Made by a program: the position numbers and the translations under genes. The notes below the pieces were generated by a model. The model ran no database searches. It was not told where the DNA came from and saw nothing but the letters and a program-made list of their open reading frames with translations. A stretch of DNA of 56,923 nt, the filler included, from Circinaria calcarea (lineage: Eukaryota), in NCBI GenBank assembly GCA_051942165.1. It is 6 parts of 6 records of this genome, joined end to end, with 100 filler letters (N's around TTAATTAATTAA, not from the genome) between each part and the next. Parts side by side here need not be neighbours in the genome. Positions count along the whole stretch, not along the records: positions 19,015 to 28,418 come from JAVECS010000941.1; 5 more parts are not named here. The stretch is one strand, 5' to 3'. Shown here one piece after another: positions 2,623-28,418 of this stretch (positions are counted from its first letter, which is position 1; the number at the start of each line of letters is the position of its first letter).

Positions 2623-3597
2623 ATGTCTAAGCCTTTACGTATCGGTTTTGTGCCGGGTAAGACTCGCCGATAATAACCAAAAGCCCCTATTAACAAGGGC
2701 CAGAGCATTTCTCAACGCCCCTTCACTTCGCTCAAAAGTACTTCAATCTGAATGCTACCTTGACACCTTTTCCGTCCGGTACCGGACACATGATTACATC
2801 TCTTCAGGCCAATGAAATCGACATTGGTATTGGTCTGACCGAGGGCTGGGTTGCTGGTCTGGGGAAACAAGGTGGCAAGGCTGGCTTCAAAATCGTGGGT
2901 ACCTATGTCGAAAGTCCGCTGTGCTGGGCCATCAGCACCGGAGCAGAAAGAGAAATTAATAATGTCTCACACTTGAAAGATACCAAGATTGGCGTTAGCC
3001 GGATAGGAAGGTCGGCTGCGGAGTCCTTTGGCAGAGAAGTAGTGTCTGCTGACACTCGGCAGTGGCTCTTACGTGATGGGATTTGTCCTTGCCGACACCA
3101 ATAGATGGTTGAAATCCCCTGGAGAACCCCCCTTTGAGGTTGTTCCCTTGCAGACTTTCGCCAAGCTACGAGAGGCCGTCAACGACAAATCCGCCGACTT
3201 CTTCATGTGGGAGCATTTCACCTCGAAGAAATACTACGACAACGGTGAGATCAAACGGATCGGGGAGATTTATACTCCCTGGAGCTCTTGGAAGATTGTC
3301 TCACAAGACCCCCAGGATGAGAGGTTACCGGCCATGTTCGACAGTATCAACCAGGGGATCCGTTATTTTCGCGACCACCCAACCGAATCCGTCGATTATA
3401 TTAGTACAAATCTGGACTATTCGAAAGAAGATGCTCAGAAGTGGCTGAAGACGGTTGAATTCGCCGATGATGTTCAAGGCGTAAGCGAGGCTACCATAGA
3501 AAAAACCATTGAGATTCTGAGGAAAGCGGGCGTCATTCACGGAACCGATGTTCAAGCCAGTCATATGATCGCTATCTCTAGGACATCCTCAGCCTAA
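2623..3597 (+). CDS. Periplasmic-binding-protein-like (NMT1/THI5-like, Ca3427-type) protein
   Basis: The spliced protein reads MSKPLRIGFVPEHFSTPLHF..GTGHM..GLTEGWVAG..SRIGSGSYVM..DFFMWEHFTSK. Introns 2657-2703 and 3011-3062 keep the frame. Confidence 0.8.
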
Positions 3598-3987
3598 GGT
3601 TGTCGCCGACAACACTATCACCATGATTCATTTCTGCTCATCAACCATGGCGGCGCAGCAAAGGAGCTTGGACACTACCATGATTCACCTCGATACATAT
3701 GCCAATATTGCAACATCAGCCATGCTCTGTCATTCCTACACCCCCACCGAGTCACTTCGGCCTCAACGAGGATGGTTCTAGTAATTTAGCACAAAGCTAG
3801 GACGACCAAACTATATATGGCTTCTTCATAGGTCACATGTGGCATTTTCGTTGTCATACCGACTAATGTGTATACGGTTCCAATTATTTTTTGACACGGT
3901 AAGTATTGACTTTCAGAGAAGTCTATCGGTGTTGCACCCGACCTAGCCTCCTGGCTTTCTCGCTGATCAATATTGCCCTCATAGCAC

Positions 3988-4953: not shown

Positions 4954-6141
4954 TGCGATTGGAATCGACTGTGATCAATCAGGGGTAAGGTGGAGGGTGA
5001 GGTTTTGAGTAGGGCCTCGATGGTTTGAGTGGTCTCTCTTATCTAATATTGTTAAAGGAGCATGGAAAGTTTTATTGCCGAGGCGCCGATCCTAATTCAC
5101 TTGCCCAACAATAAGGTCAACGCAACGGAGTAGCCTAGCGGTTCGGTCGGTCGGCCCTTCGGCCTCTCGGCTTCACGATGATCCGTGCGATATCCATGAA
5201 GGTGGGCGTTTATTCTATCTAGCAGCTTTCATCGGTTCCTCAACTTTCGACCGAAGCCGACAATGTGATAATGGCGAAAAGTCATGGGTTCCCACACAGG
5301 GTCTTTTGACTCTTTTCTTACTCAGGAGACGCGCAATCATGCATTCAACCATGGGGCTGGAATGTCAAGGATTGATGTCTCTGGAGGTTGAAATCGTGAT
5401 TTCTTCCCTGCTTTACCGGACTGCAAACTTGTCCTGCATCGGTATCACTAATAAAGGCTTATTAATGCTTCTACCATTCAGGTCGAGCAACATAGGTGGA
5501 GTACATCACATGTTGCCGTTCTCACGCCGTGCCTACCTTACCTACCCCGAACTATGTTTCCACTTATGCGGGATTACATCGTTGGCTTCGTTGGAGCCAC
5601 TGTTGAAGGGTAGATCCTAATTAGGTATGTTAGGATACCCGCAAAAGTCTTGCTAGGATTGCGGCGTACAAACTAGCGACTTATTCAAGGGTTACCTAGA
5701 ATCCTTCCACAATTCTTCGGACTTCCCGCGAAAGGTAGTCAGCCGTACGCATTTCGACTCGGACCTGTATCCTGTCTTTACAGGAGGCGGAGTCGGTTTG
5801 AAGTTCAATTGAGCATGCCTTTGGTTTTCGGATTTTGAGTTGCTGTCAAATCAGCCAATCAGGAGGGTTTTGCTGTTCCGTGACTAATCGTAGGAACAGG
5901 CTAGATTGATAATCTAAATTTGACCCCGTGCGGATCTTCCCCGCTTGGAATACGTAGTACAAGATCGTCACAAACGGTCTGTGCCCTGGCTTCCGGAACG
6001 TCCCGGCCGGGTATGGTGGAAGCGACTAATCAGGAGTGTGATATCGAGCTTCGTAAAGATTCGTAATCGCCACGTGGGAATCTAAGAGCTGATTATTCAC
6101 TTTCATATCTGATCTCACAAAGCGCTTGGAATCGCTCTCTC

Positions 6142-7508
6142 ATGGCCTTCCCTCGGAACTCCCTCCGCGCTTTTTTATCACATGCTAAATCGTACCTCCA
6201 CTCCGCGATCCGGGAGAGCAAAAGCGTTACGCTGGTGATTGGGAATGAGTCGGCAGGTTTGATAATCCGGTCGTCAATAGATGTTTTCAAAGACCCCCGA
6301 TGCTAACGCGAGATGTAGATCTCGACTCGTTGACTTCTTCCCTTCTCTATGCCTACATACGCTCCCAAGCTCCTCCCCGGACTGCCTTCACCCCGCTCTA
6401 TATCCCCCTCCTGAACATACCAGCAAGTGACATTACTTTGAGACCGGAATTTAACGTCCTCTTCACTCATGCCAACATCTCCGCGTCCCACCTCATCACC
6501 TTAGATGACCTTTCTCCTCTATCCGACCTCGAGCAACGGCTGCAACCGGAATATACTCGCTGGATTCTCGTGGATCATAATAAACTTCAGGGGTTTCTGG
6601 GGAAGGTCTACTCATCACGTGTTTGCGGCGTGATCGATCATCACGATGAGGAGCACGCTGTGCCGACCGAGACGGAACCCGAGCCTCGTATCATAGAGAA
6701 GTGTGGCTCCTCTACCAGCCTAGTGACTCAATACGTCAAGTCCGCATGGGAGAGCCTCTCTAGTGCTGCTCTGTCTTCTGGCGCTGGTCATGCGCAAGGC
6801 GATTCTCTCATCAACGACGGCGCTTTTAGCCAGGGATGGGACGCGCAAGTTGCAAAGATGGCAATCGCCAGTATTCTTGTGGACAGTGCTAATCTAACAG
6901 CAGAAGACAAGGTGGAAAAACCTGACAAGGAAGCTGTAGCGTATCTGGAATCGAAGATTCGACTGTCTCCTAAAGATGGCAAAGCCTGGGATAGGGAGAA
7001 ATTCTATGAAGAAATCAATCAAGCCAAGGCAGATATCGGAAGTCTGTCGCTAAACGACATTCTAAGAAAAGACTACAAAGAATGGACCGAGGGAGGTAGG
7101 AAGCTAGGTATCAGCTCGATAGTCAAACCGTTAGATTTCCTGATTAAAAAGGCGCAGGATGAGCGATCAAGGAGCAACGACACTTCAGCTTTTACTAAAG
7201 CTACAAACATCTTCGCATCCGATAGAGGTCTCGCAATCTTTGCCATCATGACTACATCAACCTCCTCAGAAGGAAAGTTTCAAAGAGAGTTGTATGTACA
7301 AAGCGAGAAGAACGGACGAGAAGCATCGTCCCGTTTCGAGAATACGGCAATTGGGGAACTGGGGCTGGAGCCTTTGCCTAGCGATAATGTCAATCAGCTA
7401 TCAGAAAAGAGTGATGACATCTCTCGCAGAACGTGGCTCCAGAAGGATGTCAGCAAGAGTAGGAAACAAGTCGCACCTTTGTTGAGGAAAGCAATGCAAG
7501 ATGGTTAA
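6142..7508 (+). CDS. PPX1: Exopolyphosphatase (DHH/DHHA2 family)
   Basis: GNESADLDS across intron 6257-6318, plus LVDHN, IDHH, CGSSTSLV and LRKDYKEW motifs. Confidence 0.9.
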
Positions 7509-19014: not shown

Positions 19015-22000
19015 TGTAAAACCTGCTTGCAGAGGCAGAGACAGAGAAAAAGAATCTTCTGTGTTAGATTTAATGTTTTCTAAGTTAACGGGCATCTCTG
19101 CTAAACTATTTTCAAATAGACTTATTAAAGGTACTATTATTAAAAAATATGCAAAATATAAAGCAGTTGATATTTGCCCAAATTCTATGAATGGAGACTC
19201 TACGTGTTTAGCTCCTAATTGCATTAAAATTAAAAAGTTACCAACAAAGATAAAAAATGCTATTTTACTTAAAGGTCTAAATTGTGTACCTCTAGATCTA
19301 GATAAATCTGTAAATGGCATGGCTAATAAAATTAAAATCGCAGAAAACATAGCAATAACTCCTAATAATTTATTAGGTATAGATCTTAATATAGCATAGA
19401 ATGGTAATAAGTATCATTCAGGTACTATAGCAGGTGGAGTTTGCATTGGGTTAGCCATTACATAATTTTCACTATCCCCTAAAAGATTCGGCATAAAAAA
19501 TACAATTACAGATAACACTAAGATAAATAAGAAGATAGTTATTAAATCTTTAAATATAAAATAAGGGGCAAATGGTAATCTATCATAATTATTTGATATA
19601 CCTAAAGGATTGTTTGAACCTGCACTATCATGTAATGCAATTAAGTGCATTAAAACCAAAGCTGCTAAAACAAAAGGTAAAACAAAATGTAAAGCAAAAA
19701 ATCTATTTAAAGTAGCATTGTTAACACTAAATCCTCCTCAAATAAATTCTACTATGTCTTGTCCTACTCATGGTATAGCACTCATTAAATTAGTAATAAC
19801 TGTTGCCAAATCTTTAATTTGCTAATTCTAGCTTAACGGTAGATTGGTTTAACCTCGCGTTTTACTTTATATGTTAAAAAAAAGCAAACCATGTGCAATA
19901 TACTCATTATATGGACCTTAGATCGAGATGATTGTAATTTAATACAGTATAAAGCCTTGTGTTACACACGAATAAAAAGAGTAACTTTTCTTCATTATGT
20001 AAAAAGATCCCGACTATACATTAAGCAGCATTTCAGCCACCCACCGATGGACTAGTCTGTAGCGATAGTTTACTCTACCGACGGTCTAAATGTAAAACAA
20101 ACATCTTTGACCGTTTTCATCAGTATTGCTATATGGTTAACAGTCAACCGAAGCAAGCGGTTGACCTCCCGCTTGGTCGAAGGAGAGTCTAAATTATCAG
20201 TAAAAATTACTTTAGAGATCACCATATAACTATGTAAAATTTTTATTTAGGTTAGACTATTTTGTATTTCATTTCAGGTATTATGTAAGGAGACACTATC
20301 GCTCTAAGATTGTTCATAGATTCTTTTCAAACGTAAATAACATATTGATCTTTACTCCCTGCTGACTGCACAGAAGCTTTAATGTTAAAATTATCATTTA
20401 ATACTACCACAAGTTTCATACAATCGTTATAAGTAAAAGAATGGGTGCAAAATTTAAAATCATTACCTCTTTTAGATCCATCGTGCATAATTCAAATAGC
20501 TAGAGCTAAAGGTGTTAAGTATTCACCAATACAGTCCGGTACATGCTTTATACCATCTTTATATCAGATATTATAGATTCAATTAAAACTAGTGTAAGTT
20601 CAAGATGTAAATCTTACGACTTTACGTAATTTACCTTTACTACCCAATCTTTGTAGAAGGACTGGTGTTTTTGGATTACAATAACCAGCTTCAGACATAA
20701 ATTTATGTAAATATAATAAATATTCCACATGAGAATCTTCTTGAGAAAAGGAAAATCTAGTCGCCACACCATTTAGTCTTTTTTCGCCATGAGCGTCCCC
20801 TAGAAGAGATCCGAATATAATAGATAGAATATTTTTATTATGCGGACCTATTCTATAAATACCTTTTAATCTACTTGCTTTATAACCAATCGTTTCTGAA
20901 GCAGAAACTGTGCTTATTATAAAAATAAAAATAAAAATAAAAAACCCACAATAAAAATTCCACATTTGAGGCTTTAAACTTAAACCTCATAGTGACATTT
21001 GTCCATATGGTAAAACATACAAACTTATTTTATATAACAATATAAAACTAGAATAACTTTTAATTCGTATATTCTATTGACCATTGTCAAATGTTTCGAC
21101 TGTACATTAAGCAGCATTTCAGCCACCCACCAGTGACCCAGTCTGTAGCGATCATTTATATAACCGACGGTCTCTATTATTATTTAATAATCTTTGACCG
21201 TTTTCACTAGCATTGCCAAATAAATAAATAAATAAATAAATAAATATATTTATTCAATAATCCTGTCGGATTATTCCACTTTATTTCCTGGACTTTAATC
21301 AAATAATTTGTCCAGGTCTATTAATAAAGATAAAGTTATATCTCGAACTAATAAACTATTTTTCTATAAAGATTACATAGAAATTTAAACTTGTGGGACT
21401 ATAACCTAAATAAAACTTCATATTTAAGCATTTTTAACTATTATACGTCTTTTTAACAACTTTTTTGTTAGCTTCAAAGGTTCTTCTTATGGTTTTCTCA
21501 TTACAATTTAAAGATTTAGCTCTTTCCATAATACTAGGATATTCACCATATACTGTATAATTTAAATTATATATTAGTAAGGATTTAGATTTTTTTTTCA
21601 TATTCAATAATGCTATTTCAGAATATAATGGCTTTTTATTAAAAAAAGGCACTTTTTCTCATTATTTGTAGAGTTTAGAGACTAAACTTTTTATCTTTAT
21701 TTAAATTCCCTATCCATATACGACGCTCGAGACTATAATCACACTTGATTTTAATTCTTGTTATTTCAGTATGTTTATAGCCAAAACTTGAACCGGCTTT
21801 TGTTAATATATTATAATTAGGTAATAAAGACTTTAAATCTAAATCTTCTAGATCTAATAATTTTTTTAGATTTTCTATATTTACTAGTTCGGGAATAATT
21901 ATAGTATAATAAATGCAAATACAGATATCTTATACTTTCTTACTGCTGTTTTAACAATCTTACTACCATTAAAATTAAACAAATGATTAGAAAATCTAGC

Positions 22001-22763
22001 ATAAAATTTATTTGTTGAAGCGGACCCTCTAGAGTAATATAAAGTAACTTTATTTAATGTTAAATAAATACCACTAAGGTTTAGAGTTTCTAATTTAATC
22101 TTTAGAGAGAGACAATCCAATTATAACTTTTCATAAACATAAACAGGGTTTAAGTTTTCTTTAAGTAAATCAGTCATTATTTGGCTTTTTTTCTAATTGT
22201 GTTACATGAAAACCTTCCATAATTAAAGGTGAGATTAAACTAGAATGATATCTTTTAGATATTAAATTTAATTTGTTAAGATTTATGCTTTTATACAATA
22301 ATTTATTATTATTACTATTGCTTGTCATATATGAATTATTTAATTTAGATCATTTTGGGCTATGTTTATAACCCAGAAAGGCTGTAGCTATCATTAATAT
22401 AAATATTACTGTACCTAGAGTTCAAACTAATGTTCTTGGAGCTTTATATGATCCATAGTATAATCCTCTACCTATATGTAAGTATACTAGGAAAAAGAAT
22501 GCAGATGCCGTGTTGGAATGTAAATAACGTAATAATCATCCATTATTTACATCACGCATTATATGTTCCACGGAATTAAATGCTTCTAATACACTAGGGT
22601 TGTAATGCATTGCTAGAGTTACACCTGTAATTATTTGTATAGCTAAACAAAACGCTAGTAAAGAACCGAAGTTTCAGAAATAACTTAGGTTGGATGGTTG
22701 TGGTGAGTCAATTAAATATGAATTAACCAATTTTAACAAGGGATGACTTTTAAATATTCTCAT
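19015..22763 (-). CDS. cob: Apocytochrome b; exons 22763-22371, 21019-20984 and 19806 to the contig end (3' end not seen)
   Basis: Reads [40 protein letters not shown] | [12 protein letters not shown] | [26 protein letters not shown]. The exons join in frame with TGA=Trp. Confidence 0.97.
19807..20983 (-). mobile_element. Group I intron (subgroup ID-like core) at cob position 429
   Basis: The upstream exon ends in U (GGT) and the intron ends in G. The core at about 20011-20130 reads GAAAACGGTCAAAG..GCTACAGACT..GGTGGGTGGCTGAAATGCTGCTTAATGTATAGTCG on the sense strand. Confidence 0.9.
20252..20983 (-). CDS. Intron-encoded double-motif LAGLIDADG homing endonuclease/maturase, in frame with cob exon 2, apparently intact (243 codons)
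   Basis: Motifs [11 protein letters not shown] and LALAIWIMHDG. The frame stays open through TGA=Trp codons to TAA at 20254-20252. Confidence 0.88.
21020..22370 (-). mobile_element. Group I intron (subgroup ID-like core) at cob position 393
   Basis: Exon 1 is exactly 393 nt and ends in U. The terminal G is at 21020. The core at about 21097-21217 closely matches the other intron core. Confidence 0.9.
21434..22370 (-). pseudogene. Degenerate GIY-YIG homing endonuclease with NUMOD-type repeats
   Basis: Remnants [44 protein letters not shown] and [20 protein letters not shown]. It begins in frame with exon 1 but has TAA stops and frameshifts. Confidence 0.85.
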
Positions 22764-22850
22764 TTTTTTTTTTTTATTTTTTGTTTTAATTTATTTTTTT
22801 TTTATTAATATTAATCTCGGGTAGTTTATTTCTCCGTTTACCCTTTCTTA
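22761..22850 (-). repeat. cob 5' leader plus start codon, copy 1 of an ~90-bp direct repeat
   Basis: On the + strand: cat(t)n attttttgttttaatttattt..tattaatattaatctcgggtagtttatttctccgtttacc. It matches 23651-23740. Confidence 0.9.
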
Positions 22851-23167
22851 AAATAGAAAATTATTATTTAGAATCTAGATATGTTTTATCTAAATAGAAA
22901 ATATATGCTTTTATTATAAAATATTACACACTAAGATTATACATCTGTGTTTTAATTAAAAAAAAAAGGATAACTTTTAAAGCTTCTTACCTCTTATTTA
23001 TCTCTCTCTCTCTCTAAAATTAACCTTTTTCGTTGTCACAACATTTTTTGTTGCTATTATACCACTAAAGAGTATATTAACGAAAAGTATTAATATGGTT
23101 TAGACTAAGGCTCTATTAATACCAAGCAAAAAAAAAAATGTAAAGTTGTTTAAAAATAGTTGAGCTA

Positions 23168-23653
23168 CTAGTCTGAATCAAATATATCAAAAGGTTGTTC
23201 ATCTAGTGAGGCGTAATCGTCTAATAAAGAACTTTCTTCTTTTTTTTCAGTTTCAACCTTTTCTAACTTTTCGAGATATTCCTTTGCTTCCTCTATTTCA
23301 TCTTTATATTCTTCTCTAATTTCTTCACTTTCACAATCTTCTTTAGCTTTTAGATTATTCTCTATAGTCTTCATATAAACTCATTTTTGGTCTTCACAAG
23401 ACATTTCATTATTAGGACTTGGCAAATCTTCTATATTTAGTTGTACATTAGGATCAGTGTTTTTTATTTCTTGCATATTAGTATAAAGTGCACTGTATTT
23501 TTCGGAATCTTCATATTCTTGACGATCTTTATCCTCTCTTTCTTTTATTTCTTGTATAAAAAGAGGCTCTTTAGATCTTCTTTCAAGTTCTTCAGTTATT
23601 GCTTCATTATCTTCGTTTAAATGGATATTAATTTCTTCTAGTTTTCTTTTCAT
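23168..23653 (-). CDS. Orphan acidic Glu/Asp/Lys-rich mitochondrial ORF, 161 aa
   Basis: Track ORFs 23381-23653 and 23168-23374 fuse in frame through TGA(Trp)-GTT-TAT. The protein ends SSLLDDYASLDEQPFDIFDSD-TAG. Confidence 0.75.
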
Positions 23654-23740
23654 TTTTTTTTTATTTTTTGTTTTAATTTATTTTTTTTATTAATATTGAT
23701 CTCGGGTAGTTTATTTCTCAGTTTACCGGCTTCTTGAAAG
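23651..23740 (-). repeat. Duplicated cob 5' leader plus ATG, copy 2, upstream of the acidic ORF
   Basis: On the + strand: cat(t)n attttttgttttaatttattt..tattaatattgatctcgggtagtttatttctcagtttacc. Confidence 0.9.
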
Positions 23741-25049
23741 AGAGAGTTATGCTGAATTTTAATATTTTAGATTTAAATATTACCTAAAAATATAATAGAA
23801 ATTATATCTAATGTGTCACACACACATTACTATTGTGATTTAGTGGTGACAAATAAGGAAAAGATTTTATTTTTTTTTTTTAAGTAAATAGCTCGCGATT
23901 TATCATTTTCAGATTAAGATGGTATTATATAATACCAGCTTAACATTTTATTTGTAGTTTATCTAGATTAATTTATAATACAGTATTTCTTATTATGTAT
24001 ATATAATATATAACTAGATTTAAAACTAATAGTTTTATATGGGAGACTCTCGATTCCTTATTTAAATTATTATATTTTTAGGTTAGCCTTAACCTTACAG
24101 TTATCGACACATGTGTGATGGGCAGGGCAAACAACATATACGTGGCGTACGGCAGCACAATTGTCACAATATTTCATTAATAACGAAAAAATTATTTATA
24201 CACATCTAGTAGAAAGAGAGTGTTTTATCCCAATCATAAACTTCGGTGGTATTAAACCAGTTTTCATGAACAGAATTAAGGTTAGAGGGGAGATCCCATT
24301 TACCAATTTGATCTAGAATTAAAAAAAAATAAATAACATGAAAATTATTTTTTTTTTATTTATTTTTTTTTACACTGCCTTTTAGAGGATTGTAAAGGTC
24401 TTTCTAAAATGAATTAATTAAACTAGTTAAATTAAACTAATTAAAATCTAAACAAATCTTAGATTTTTTATCTAAGTTACAATATTACTCTCTAGAGGTA
24501 AATTAACAGAGGGATTAACTTTAGCGAACATTAGATTAAATTTAACCAACTTTTTTTTTTTATCCAAGGATGATTTTTAAGATTATCATTATTATTTTAG
24601 AGAGAGAGAGAGAGAGAAAGGGTATTATGTTAAATAATGCTTTAGACAAGAGACTTATATCTAAAGCTCTAAAGGTAAATAAGTAAAACCTGTTGCAAAT
24701 TTAAAAAGAATTAAAAATATTTAATAAGCTATACTTTTATAGCATAGCTATAAGATATTAGTGATATCAAGCCGCATTCATGAATGTGGTGTTAAGCTGT
24801 ACACAGATTACGCTGTGTCGAATTACTTCTAGTATAATTAGGATTTAAGTTTGTTATCTGCAATTCGTTTTAACCCCATGCTTTTTTTTTACAACACAAA
24901 TGTTTGCCTCTCTATATGTTCCACGTGTATATTGAGTAAATTTATATCAACCGTGTGTAATGTTACCATATGCATATACATGATGCGTAACTTAGTACCA
25001 CGTTGATTCACTCGTTTCTGCAGTGTTGGACATAAATATTCTATTTTCC

Positions 25050-27950
25050 ATAAAAAAAAAATAAATTACTAAACTTGATATTATAATTGCAACTCTAAAA
25101 TTTAAAGTTTTACGAGTAGATAGTGAAGAATATTTAATTAGTGGGAGAAGAACTGAATCCCATATCGTAATTAAAGCTCTAAACCAAAAATTAGACTTCA
25201 AAGTAATAAACTGGGAGAGATATAACCTAGGCGAATACTGGGTAATGACACATAAATGAGCTTTGCATAGGTAAACTTACAAATGCTGGAGATTTAAGTA
25301 GATTGTTTAAGCAATCTTTAACTTAATTAACCAAACAATAATCTAAAAGAACTTTTATAGATATCTTTTTAGATTTCCAATCTTTGAATTCCCCTCTCTT
25401 CTATCGATTATAAATACTCTTATATTAAAGGTGAAAAAAAGATAATTTTAATATTAGGTATTGTTGAGTTGCGTAATTTTTATAATTAGAGTACTAGAGT
25501 TACTAATATATTACTTTATGATCATTATACTCTTTACATTAAAGTAAGGTATGATAAAGATAAGTTTCTAATGGTTGGAAATTAATTTGGTTTTATTTTT
25601 AGTTCAAGTAATGATCTATTGTACTTATATACTAGTATAAATGATAAATTAGAGATTATTTTGCGGAGTATTCCTTTAATGATGATAGTATAAACTATAT
25701 TATGATTACCTTTAGGAAAGTCGATATTGAATTACTTGCAGAATATAAACTTGATCTAAAAGATATAATTAGTACTGGTTTCACACAAAATACAGCAGGT
25801 GAACTTCATACACTTACTACTATTCCTATATCTTCTAATCTAGATAGTCTTATTAAACCGATTGATTGTACTATAAAAGATGGACTTATAACAAATATAC
25901 CTGTTGTCTACAAAGATAATACTTTAATTTATTAAATTAAATTGATAAACAAAATAAGTTTTTAGCTTTAAGAAAAAATAATGTTGATAAAATAAAAAGT
26001 TTTACTACGGATTATAAATTTTATCAAGTGGGAGGATCTAAACCTTATGTTTTATGTATAAAACAACAAGATTTTTTCATGGTAGAGAAAATATGCTATG
26101 CTATGAATGGAGTTCTCCTTACTATGGTTATTGATAAGATGTTACAAGATGGTAATATTGTTAGAAAATATAACAATTATGAATTACTTATTAGTGAAGG
26201 TAAAGTTATTAAGATTTAAAATATAATTTAAATCTTATACCTATTAAAAAAAAATAGAAGTTTTATCTGTCTAAAACCCTAATATAGGTGTTATTGATCT
26301 AGAAACTCTAGAAGATAATAATGGTAATTTTAAGATATATTGTTTAGGATTTAAAACAAATTTATATATTAAACCTGTAATATATTATGTTGATGAAAAA
26401 GCTAAGAATTATGATTAAATTGTATTAAAATTAGTTGATGAATTGTTAAGGAGTAGATACCAAGATATTAAGTTTTATTGTCATAACTTAGGAGGATTTG
26501 ATATTATTTTTATATTAAGTCTTTTACTAAGATATAATGAACATCATGATGATAAATATCATCTTAATTATATTTTAAGAGATAAGTAAATAATTAGAAT
26601 TACTATTTCTAAAAAGATTAATAACATTACACGTAAACTTTCTATTCAAGATAGTTATTGTATATTAAGCGAAAGTCAATTGTCTTTATCTAAAAAGTTT
26701 AAAGTGGATGCTATAAAAACTCCTTTTTCTTATCTTTTCTCAAAAGAGAATAATTTAAGTTCTAGAGGTACTACACCTGATATTTATTATTCTAAAAATA
26801 TGGATGTATTTAGCTATCAATTAATTTACGAAGATAATTGATCATTTAAAGAAGAGTCTATGAAATATCTTGAAAATGATCTGTTAGGTTTATATCAAAT
26901 TCTAACGAAAGCTAATAAATCATTTTTTATAGACTATGGTATTGATATTACAGATAGTTTAACAATATCATCTTTAGCTATGAAGGTTTTTCATAAAAAG
27001 TACTATAATAATATACCTTCTATTAGTAATACTAAAGTATATAGAGATATTAAAAGTGGATGTTACGGAGGTATTACTGAAGTATATAGACCTTATGGAG
27101 AAAATTTATATTATTATGATGTTAATAGTTTATATCCTTATGTAGCTTTAAATCCTATCCCTGGTATTCATTGTACAAGGGTAGAGTATATTAATCATAA
27201 TGTTTCTATTCATGATCTTTGCGGTTTTTATTTATGTGAAATAGAATGTGATAATAATTATCTAGGATTATTACCTTTTAGAGATAAAAGAGGACTTATA
27301 TTTCATATGGGAAAATGAAAAAGTTGATATTTTTCTGAAGAATTAAAATTTGCTTATGATAATGGTTATAAAATAAAAGTTCTAAAAGGATACTTAATAA
27401 AGAGTTAGATGTTTTCTAAATTATGTATTAGATATTTATAAAATTAAATCAAATGCTATCAATCCTCTCCAAAAATCTAGAGCTAAAAATTTACTTAATA
27501 ATTTGTCAGGTAGATTTGGTATATCTATATAAAAACCTATTACAGTGATTATGTATGAAAAGCAGTTTAATAAAATAAGTTATATGAACAAGGTGAATTC
27601 TTACATAGAATTACAGGATAATCAATATCTGGTTACTTACTATCCTAGTTTAGATTATGATATTATAAATAATTTAGGATTAGATCTAGTTAAAATTGCT
27701 AGTAAATATAGAGATAATGTAAGTAGTTACCATGATTATACTTCTGTTTGTATTTAAGCGGCTATTACAGCTTATGGTCTAATAAAGATCAGTAAATTGA
27801 AATTATTTATACTAAATAAAGGTGGAAGTATATATTATTCTGATACTAATAGTATAGTTACTGAGATAAAATTACCTGATTCTATGGTTAGTAGTAGTGA
27901 AATAGGTAAATTGAGATTGGAACATGTAATTGAGAGACTTAGAGTCTAAA
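25050..27950 (+). pseudogene. dpoB: Degenerate protein-primed family-B DNA polymerase of linear mitochondrial plasmid type; boundaries approximate
   Basis: Motifs occur in order: ExoI VIDLET (~26290), ExoII YCHNLGGFD (~26475), QDSY, KYLEND, YGGITEVY..YYYDVNSLYP, KNLLNNLSGRFG, AAITAYG, YYSDTNS and IGKLRLE. There are many TAA stops and frameshifts. Confidence 0.92.
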
Positions 27951-28418
27951 TTATATATAGAAAGGTATTTTACGGTGAGTTAGATAAACTAAAGGCAGAT
28001 GTTATTAAGCCTAATAGATCTAAAAATGAATGTAGTTTTATGGTCGGTTATCCCAATAGACCGAAACTTCTTTTTGATTAAGCAAAAAAAGCGCGATTAC
28101 AGAATCAAACTTTCGACTAGAAAATGCGTTCTCTCCCGTCGTCGAAAGGAAGAAAATTAGATGAGAATAAATGAGATTCTTTCATCCAAAGGTATCTTTC
28201 CTTCATAACGTCCCGACTAGGATTTTGGGATATGCCCTGTTCCCCCCCGTGCAATTTTCTTTAAGTTAAAAACAAAAAAGAAGATAACCTTAGCTTTAAA
28301 CAAAAACGTCTTTTGTTCTTCTCTACTAAACCTTAATTTTTATTAAGGTGGCCATCATTTTCGCTATATAAGCGGATTAGTCCAAAACTAGTTATCAACT
28401 GGTTGGCAGTCAGCCAGC

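Follow-up and report, generated by a model that had tools for sequence, protein, structure and literature searches.

An acidic reading frame of 161 residues, ORF161, situated upstream of cob on a fungal mitochondrial contig, ends in a 22-residue tail that recurs at the C-terminus of two unrelated ORFs in the same assembly, and its start codon is preceded by a copy of the cob leader. The leader copy is a known and locally common kind of reshuffling; the conserved tail is the new point and the part worth following. In the best reading of these data ORF161 belongs to a loosely knit set of acidic mitochondrial ORFs whose sole defining feature is the common tail. We consider it probable that ORF161 is a genuine accessory gene, dispensable and evolving fast, with a leader captured by recombination, a charged, drifting body and a tail constrained as a peptide that would serve for docking. 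No description of ORF161 or of its tail was found in the literature covered, which included few subscription journals and, among supplements, only those of PMC8672057.

ORF161 and its surroundings

The window, i.e. the whole stretch of DNA analysed here (56,923 nucleotides, filler included, Circinaria calcarea assembly GCA_051942165.1), contains the ORF161/cob locus on an AT-rich mitochondrial contig of 9,404 bases (C941 of assembly G000, window 19015-28418, between N spacers). The contig was translated as fungal mitochondrial DNA with table 4; on it lie cob and its two intron ORFs, the remains of a dpoB gene and an intergenic region (Table 1). The sequence-only reading had described the neighbouring GIY-YIG and dpoB ORFs as full of stops; these are indeed in pieces, but the LAGLIDADG ORF of the second cob intron is intact. 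At window 19015-19100 the cob frame runs off the contig end without a stop, past a non-standard-looking C-terminal stretch, and as far as the sequence goes cob may carry a C-terminal extension.

Table 1. Positions of the features discussed (window coordinates unless a contig is named)
Feature	Position	Strand	Remarks
ORF161, intact acidic ORF	23168..23653	-	table 4; W91 = TGA; predicted soluble and largely helical
Conserved 22-codon C-terminal tail of ORF161 plus stop	23168..23236	-	ESSLLDDYASLDEQPFDIFDSD and stop; common to two unrelated ORFs
Tail partners of ORF161	G000:C3603:1866-1934 and G000:C2266:2142-2210		same distance from stop
cob 5' leader and start codon	22761..22896	-	
Copy of the cob leader ahead of ORF161, ATG included	23651..23779	-	proximal 77 bases nearly identical, distal ~50 bases diverged
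Third, partial cob leader copy	G000:C3104:2028-2120		
Spacer from ORF161 stop to cob leader	22897..23167	.	indel-rich among relatives
cob exon 1	22371..22763	-	3' boundary inferred from translation
GIY-YIG-type intron endonuclease ORF, broken, cob intron 1	21437..22120	-	TIGR01453 pieces, E 1.2e-7 and 6.6e-4, below cut-off
LAGLIDADG_2 ORF, intact, cob intron 2	20252..21073	-	
Plasmid-type DNA polymerase B (dpoB) remnant, in pieces	26590..27949	+	PF03175, E 7e-52, for 26590-27405; later pieces assigned by position
Dispersed repeat	28100..28411	.	5 further assembly copies, 94-99% identity

At least two mitogenomes are present in the assembly, as seen from paired nad1 (82% alike), atp6 (72%) and nad3 (78%) genes. 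From 141-base overlaps and repeats of 96-100% identity with C941 we infer a set A of contigs tied to it (C671, C239, C3117, C2173, C3104, C1378, C1107 and others); C2266, C3603 and others would constitute a second mitogenome, set B. The two sets appear to be two different fungi, and C2016 may be a strain variant. In addition to this mixture of mitogenomes, G000 holds several variants of the cox1 5' region at 93-96% identity.

The uninterrupted acidic frame described from the sequence was borne out with TGA read as Trp, the only TGA being that of W91. Asp and Glu make up 32% of the residues, giving a net charge of -28, a pI of 4.3 and a GRAVY of -1.38 with no hydrophobic stretch. The frame stayed open in none of 20,000 shuffles of its own bases, and in third codon position composition it resembles cob. 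No known domain was detected (Pfam best E 0.071, NCBIfam without a match), and no endonuclease or transposase domain was found in either collection; the best match among PDB sequences was a chaperonin helix (E 0.005). As an open table-4 frame in mitochondrial DNA, outside the core genes and without a known domain, ORF161 counts as a fungal mitochondrial uORF. A single-sequence model predicts three long helices (residues 2-27, 30-66 and 86-150) and non-helical last 11 residues, at a pTM of 0.24, and Foldseek returned no fold match to it.

The sequence-only reading had also proposed a DNA-mimic or regulatory protein. A DNA mimic or cob-specific regulator, which would titrate a factor by virtue of its total negative charge, would suit the charge and pI given above as well as the position of the ORF beside cob behind the same leader. 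We found this idea unsupported and consider it very improbable: neither fold nor sequence searches returned a match, the body is poorly conserved, and the other ORFs with this tail have unrelated bodies and other neighbours.

The search for sequencing runs matched the stretch in 20 runs from 11 studies, each with less than half of its words. Four runs from four studies, chosen for containing the stretch, were examined, and all four carry ORF161 in the same place at ~97% identity. Four of the pieces listed lie inside ORF161; over their combined 1,050 bases there are 32 substitutions but not a single gap, whereas gaps occur in seven of the eight listed pieces containing the spacer. The 12 indels listed (28 further exist) fall seven times in the spacer, five times in intron 1 and never in ORF161; this comparison of gaps rests on the pieces listed (41 further exist), and A-runs are longer in the spacer than in ORF161. 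One contig of run X2 covers 23900-24081 and 22820-23635, leading from the upstream DNA through ORF161 into the cob leader. None of the listed pieces bridges ORF161 and the cob exon, because the repeat is skipped. A misassembly of a single leader is thus unlikely, with ORF161 in place in four independent runs and gap-free in the four listed pieces.

Database proteins point in the same direction. P0002, P0003 and P0008 are N-terminal pieces of ORF161-like proteins, the first two ending exactly at the TGA, and P0004 is a C-terminal piece. Relative to ORF161 they show 7 changed residues in 90 (P0002), 9 in 90 (P0003) and 2 in 68 (P0004) without any indel, and the last 39 residues of P0004 are unchanged. 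The ORF is real, and its frame is retained both in the runs of relatives and in the protein matches. P0003 and P0004 together differ at 11 of 158 residues (~7%), compared with a nucleotide change of ~3%; as amino-acid change is high relative to nucleotide change, selection on the body is weak. Judged from these sequences, selection maintains the frame of ORF161 more than its body sequence.

Among the five RNA runs listed, the one examined contains an unstranded contig over 23170-23594, which may stem from DNA in the library and is a weak sign of transcription. In RNA run X4 ORF161 and cob exon 1 are covered, while 21991-22172 and 23720-24600 are uncovered; gaps in the cover of contig data carry no weight, and strain differences could explain the pattern. 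ORF161 is probably a genuine, dispensable gene.

A shared C-terminal tail

The C-terminus of ORF161 follows the pattern S[LI][LI]DD[YF]A...P.D.FD.D directly before the stop, which is present in three copies in the assembly, each time at the end of an unrelated body. The copy on C3603 closes an intact acidic frame of 519 codons (stop to stop; L051:25-1584, plus strand) rich in long Gly-Thr-Glu repeats and without a Pfam match, which ends in QSSLIDDFADTSCEPMDPFDPD and its stop 197 bases before nad3. The third copy, on C2266, belongs to a decayed acidic ORF full of stops between nad1 and a cox2 fragment and has the same ending, interrupted by one TAG. In a comparison with 13,054 stop-anchored 22-residue windows (20 stretches, 96 kb) these two partners scored 59 and 50 and the next best 14, while none of 2,000 shuffled ORF161 tails reached a score of 50. 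The likeness of the tail to other acidic mitochondrial ORFs, which the sequence-only reading had put forward, is thereby confirmed within this assembly.

Between ORF161 and C3603 the tails agree in 11 of 22 residues and in 37 of 69 bases. Six of these 11 common residues are written with different codons and the stop differs too, and therefore the constraint on the tail acts on the peptide. The bodies of the tail-bearing ORFs do not align with each other (best E 0.77). Tail patterns occurred neither in viral contigs nor in prokaryote genomes, and a profile of the tail found no PDB sequence below E 0.87. From its sequence, the tail points to a docking signal not characterised before; the weak point of the tail evidence is its three copies, one of them broken by the TAG.

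An acidic ORF in a nad5 intron (L012:7603-7893) looks tail-like by eye, lay outside the top scores and was rejected as a tail-bearer; it is part of a series of acidic ORF pieces within this intron (L012:7327-7893, plus strand) which have no Pfam match. On the minus strand of L053, the ORFs at 5171-6580 and 2756-3637 end alike, in NTKALRDSLRNAP and NTKPIRDQLRNLP respectively, each followed by the stop, and their sequences suggest a second group with a shared C-terminal tail.

Distant full-length relatives of ORF161 were not found: a phmmer search of 1.84 billion representatives gave three matches, all of them nameless fragments with 72-97% identity. A word-indexed protein search at near lengths gave two nameless matches among 214 candidates; one of 15 proteins of 30-36 residues aligned with ORF161, and none of 243 longer proteins matched the tail region. 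Pattern matches in JGI metagenome contigs (349) were not confirmed in any case. The degenerate pattern KWVYMKTI hit 19 loci in metagenome contigs, all 19 by chance, and no viral contig. No match to ORF161 was present in 72,556 mostly bacterial plasmid records.

Leader capture and turnover of ORF161-type copies

The start codons of cob (22763) and ORF161 (23653) are 890 bases apart, both on the minus strand. From GGTAAAC to the ATG the two leaders are equal in 75 of 77 aligned bases, apart from two length differences of 2 and 3 bases in A-runs. In the distal part (~50 bases) equality drops to 35 of 48, and the full match extends over 132 columns (83%, E 7e-32). The repeat of the leader including the ATG is thus real, and it is about 130 bases long, not about 90 as first estimated. 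As also noted then, the similarity ends at the ATG, beyond which there is AT-rich noise and no coding likeness. Folding of the two leaders gave no special structure (z -1.19 and -0.01). A scan with the Neurospora promoter consensus, as quoted in PMC8979003, found a one-mismatch box in the cob leader; such boxes occur at background rate (50 sites in 18.8 kb) and the candidate promoter was rejected. The box is altered in the copy belonging to ORF161.

Seven core gene starts of set A were tested for leader copies. Extra copies ahead of non-core or decayed ORFs were found for four of the seven, namely cob, nad1, atp6 and atp8; nad3 and nad5 abut the preceding gene, and the nad4L leader has no copy. 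A decayed ORF occurs twice, behind the nad1 leader on C2016 and behind a partial cob leader on C3104. Set A also contains a paralogue of ORF161, on C2173, which lies upstream of nad1 and faces away from it. It is 63% identical to ORF161 over residues 2-80, has a frameshift just past the ATG, is truncated, and lacks the cob leader except for an A-rich stretch. Because the leaders of four of seven core starts are copied, one ORF occurs with two leaders and the paralogue lacks that of cob, the copying looks like a general capture by repeat-driven recombination, which fits these sequences better than an element targeting the cob start.

Several other reshuffled loci were seen on these contigs. On C1378 (L053:5171-6544, minus strand) an intact chimera of 457 residues combines the atp8 start, a 99%-identical nad1 piece and a cox1-like C-terminal piece with unassigned parts, hydrophobic and rich in Asn, Pro and Gly; its resemblance to plant CMS-type genes is much closer than that of ORF161. 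C2173 has at L008:105-432 and 727-1455 a degenerate nad1 leader with first codons and a long GAAGAG microsatellite inside, followed by a broken membrane-type ORF. Past nad1 on C3104 (L009:440-2560), degenerate pieces of cob and cox1 form a patchwork with a tRNA-Arg, the partial cob leader and a decayed ORF. On C239 (L011:7006-10000 and L012:1-1661) nad3 is without its usual stop and continues into an open frame of ~1,500 codons.

Copies of the ORF161 type are born and lost often. Over codons 14-66 ORF161 and the C2173 paralogue differ with pN 0.096 and pS 0.051, values uninformative as dN/dS because the paralogue is broken. A more distant homologue, P0005/P0006, matches residues 60-127 at 72% identity and ends short of the tail; its database gene call reads through the W91 position, which suggests TGG there. 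The foreign N-terminus of P0006 is translated dispersed repeat and matches window 28250-28303 on the minus strand; this repeat seems to have interrupted an ORF161 homologue. The dpoB remnant is located ~2-3 kb from ORF161 on the opposite strand.

Possible origin and role in comparison with known systems

In the reading that we prefer, recombination among repeats places core-gene leaders ahead of non-core ORFs, and in this way ORF161 received that of cob. The near-unchanged proximal 77 bases are likely to provide ORF161 with cob-like signals for the mRNA 5'-end and the start of translation, and hence with expression in the matrix; ORF161 would perhaps be on a precursor transcript continuing into cob. 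That the two genes share expression signals, as had been proposed, is very probable through the leader copy. The body would act as a charged helical stalk free to drift, while the peptide sequence of the tail is constrained. We lean slightly towards the tail being a short linear motif that would dock ORF161 on a conserved nuclear-encoded matrix protein. By analogy with the acidic tails of SSB-type proteins we would name nucleic-acid machinery as the partner, be it the RNA polymerase, the replisome or the ribosome, a choice to which we give less than even odds; a matrix protease reading the tail as a degradation tag is our second choice and a doubtful one.

A different origin had been suggested by the sequence-only reading, namely an element that inserted at the cob start and duplicated the leader. 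As a mobile cassette, ORF161 would have arrived together with the spacer and a new leader, rebuilding the leader at the insertion site and being mobilised in trans by an intron endonuclease, as a 5' counterpart of the endonuclease-carrying mobile ORFs that duplicate the 3' ends of genes. The direct repeat of ~130 bases around a unit of 890 bases has the form expected of such an insertion, and all three tail-bearing ORFs lie just upstream, and on the same strand, of cob, nad3 and the cox2 fragment. A joint from 22874 to 23884 in run X1 could be taken for the empty site; it has a depth of 3.1 and only 26 bases on its short side, its loose end matches DNA upstream of the ORF161 leader and may be a more cob-like form of the copy, and the joint is readable either way. 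All four runs examined carry ORF161 and no empty cob site was seen in them, a weak test in runs selected for containing the stretch. Since leader copying is general and leaders are mixed, with many unrelated ORFs preceded by leader copies, and since the paralogue is without the cob leader and no nuclease or transposase domain was found in Pfam or NCBIfam, the insertion of an element remained unsupported and we regard it as unlikely.

Still less probable to us is a decaying, useless leftover, in which ORF161 would be what is left of the 3' portion of a formerly longer gene with the tail, or of a linear plasmid that had integrated, open for now because it is short and was recently re-headed. Decay is certainly seen around it: in the frameshifted and truncated C2173 paralogue, in P0005/P0006 with its replaced N-terminus and an end that precedes the tail, in the stop-ridden tail ORF of C2266 and in the nearby dpoB remnant, and substitutions in the body of ORF161 are mostly non-synonymous. 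Against this, the 1,050 bases of ORF161 listed from the runs are free of gaps when the spacer has many, the tail is intact in ORF161 and P0004 and differs from related tails mainly at silent positions, the proximal leader is kept while its distal part drifts, and the plasmid collection, mainly bacterial, gave no match. We thus retain the reading of an accessory gene with a captured leader and a peptide-held tail. It is possible, but on present evidence rather unlikely, that it represents a class of genes in Pezizomycotina mitogenomes, accessory or selfish and so far undescribed, built from three swappable modules: a leader captured from a core gene, a drifting acidic body and a fixed 22-residue C-terminal tag for docking on a conserved mitochondrial machine such as the RNA polymerase, the replisome or the ribosome. 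If true, any ORF that acquired the two ends would gain expression and might modulate how mtDNA is expressed or transmitted.

The chains of bacterial SSB and of the phage T7 protein gp2.5 end in an acidic peptide in which hydrophobic residues are spaced out, and the ORF161 tail may be compared with these in layout; unlike them ORF161 has no OB fold, and the tail profile is without a match among PDB sequences. Should the tail bind the machinery for expression or replication of mtDNA, fungal mitochondria would have small regulators, or selfish modulators, encoded in their own DNA. Chimeric CMS ORFs of plants gained expression by recombination with the 5' flank of a core gene; typically they encode membrane proteins and cause a sterility phenotype. 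The 5' flank copied from a core gene is common to these and ORF161, which in contrast is hydrophilic, has no transmembrane segment and contains no coding fragment of a core gene.

In fungal mitogenomes, fusions of core genes and truncated duplicates are reported for Sclerotinia borealis (PMC4162613) and Shiraia-like species (PMC11881002). In Phlebia radiata (PMC4019555), ORF319 is reported to lie where a duplicated region ends and to share its 5' end with nad6, 36 of 37 bases being equal. ORF319 and ORF161 are both ORFs of unknown function with the 5' end of a core gene; in ORF319 the copy belongs to an inverted duplication of 6.1 kb and takes in coding bases, whereas that of ORF161 is a direct copy of ~130 bases ending at the ATG. 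The mobile ORFs (mORFs) of Glomus (PMC3630166) code for a site-specific endonuclease, and what they duplicate is the 3' coding end of a gene; similar elements are mentioned in PMC4019555. As with ORF161, the ORF neighbours a core gene of which one piece is duplicated. ORF161 differs from mORFs and free-standing HEGs in having no LAGLIDADG or GIY-YIG domain and in that its copy is a 5' untranslated leader, not a 3' end.

The uORFs common in fungal mitogenomes (PMC8672057; PMC7202290) are numerous, and nearly all of them lack a known function; PMC8672057 gives a mean of 8.2 per genome, 35.5% of them without any known domain. Leader capture, which has precedent, would explain how uORFs are expressed. 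The tail offers a concrete handle on such ORFs, both as a 22-residue peptide for pull-down and as a profile for gathering the group from public mitogenomes. ORF161 is like the free-standing uORFs of PMC8672057 in being intergenic and domain-less; in the sections of this survey drawn on here neither a common C-terminal tail nor a captured leader is described for them, and ORF161 has both.
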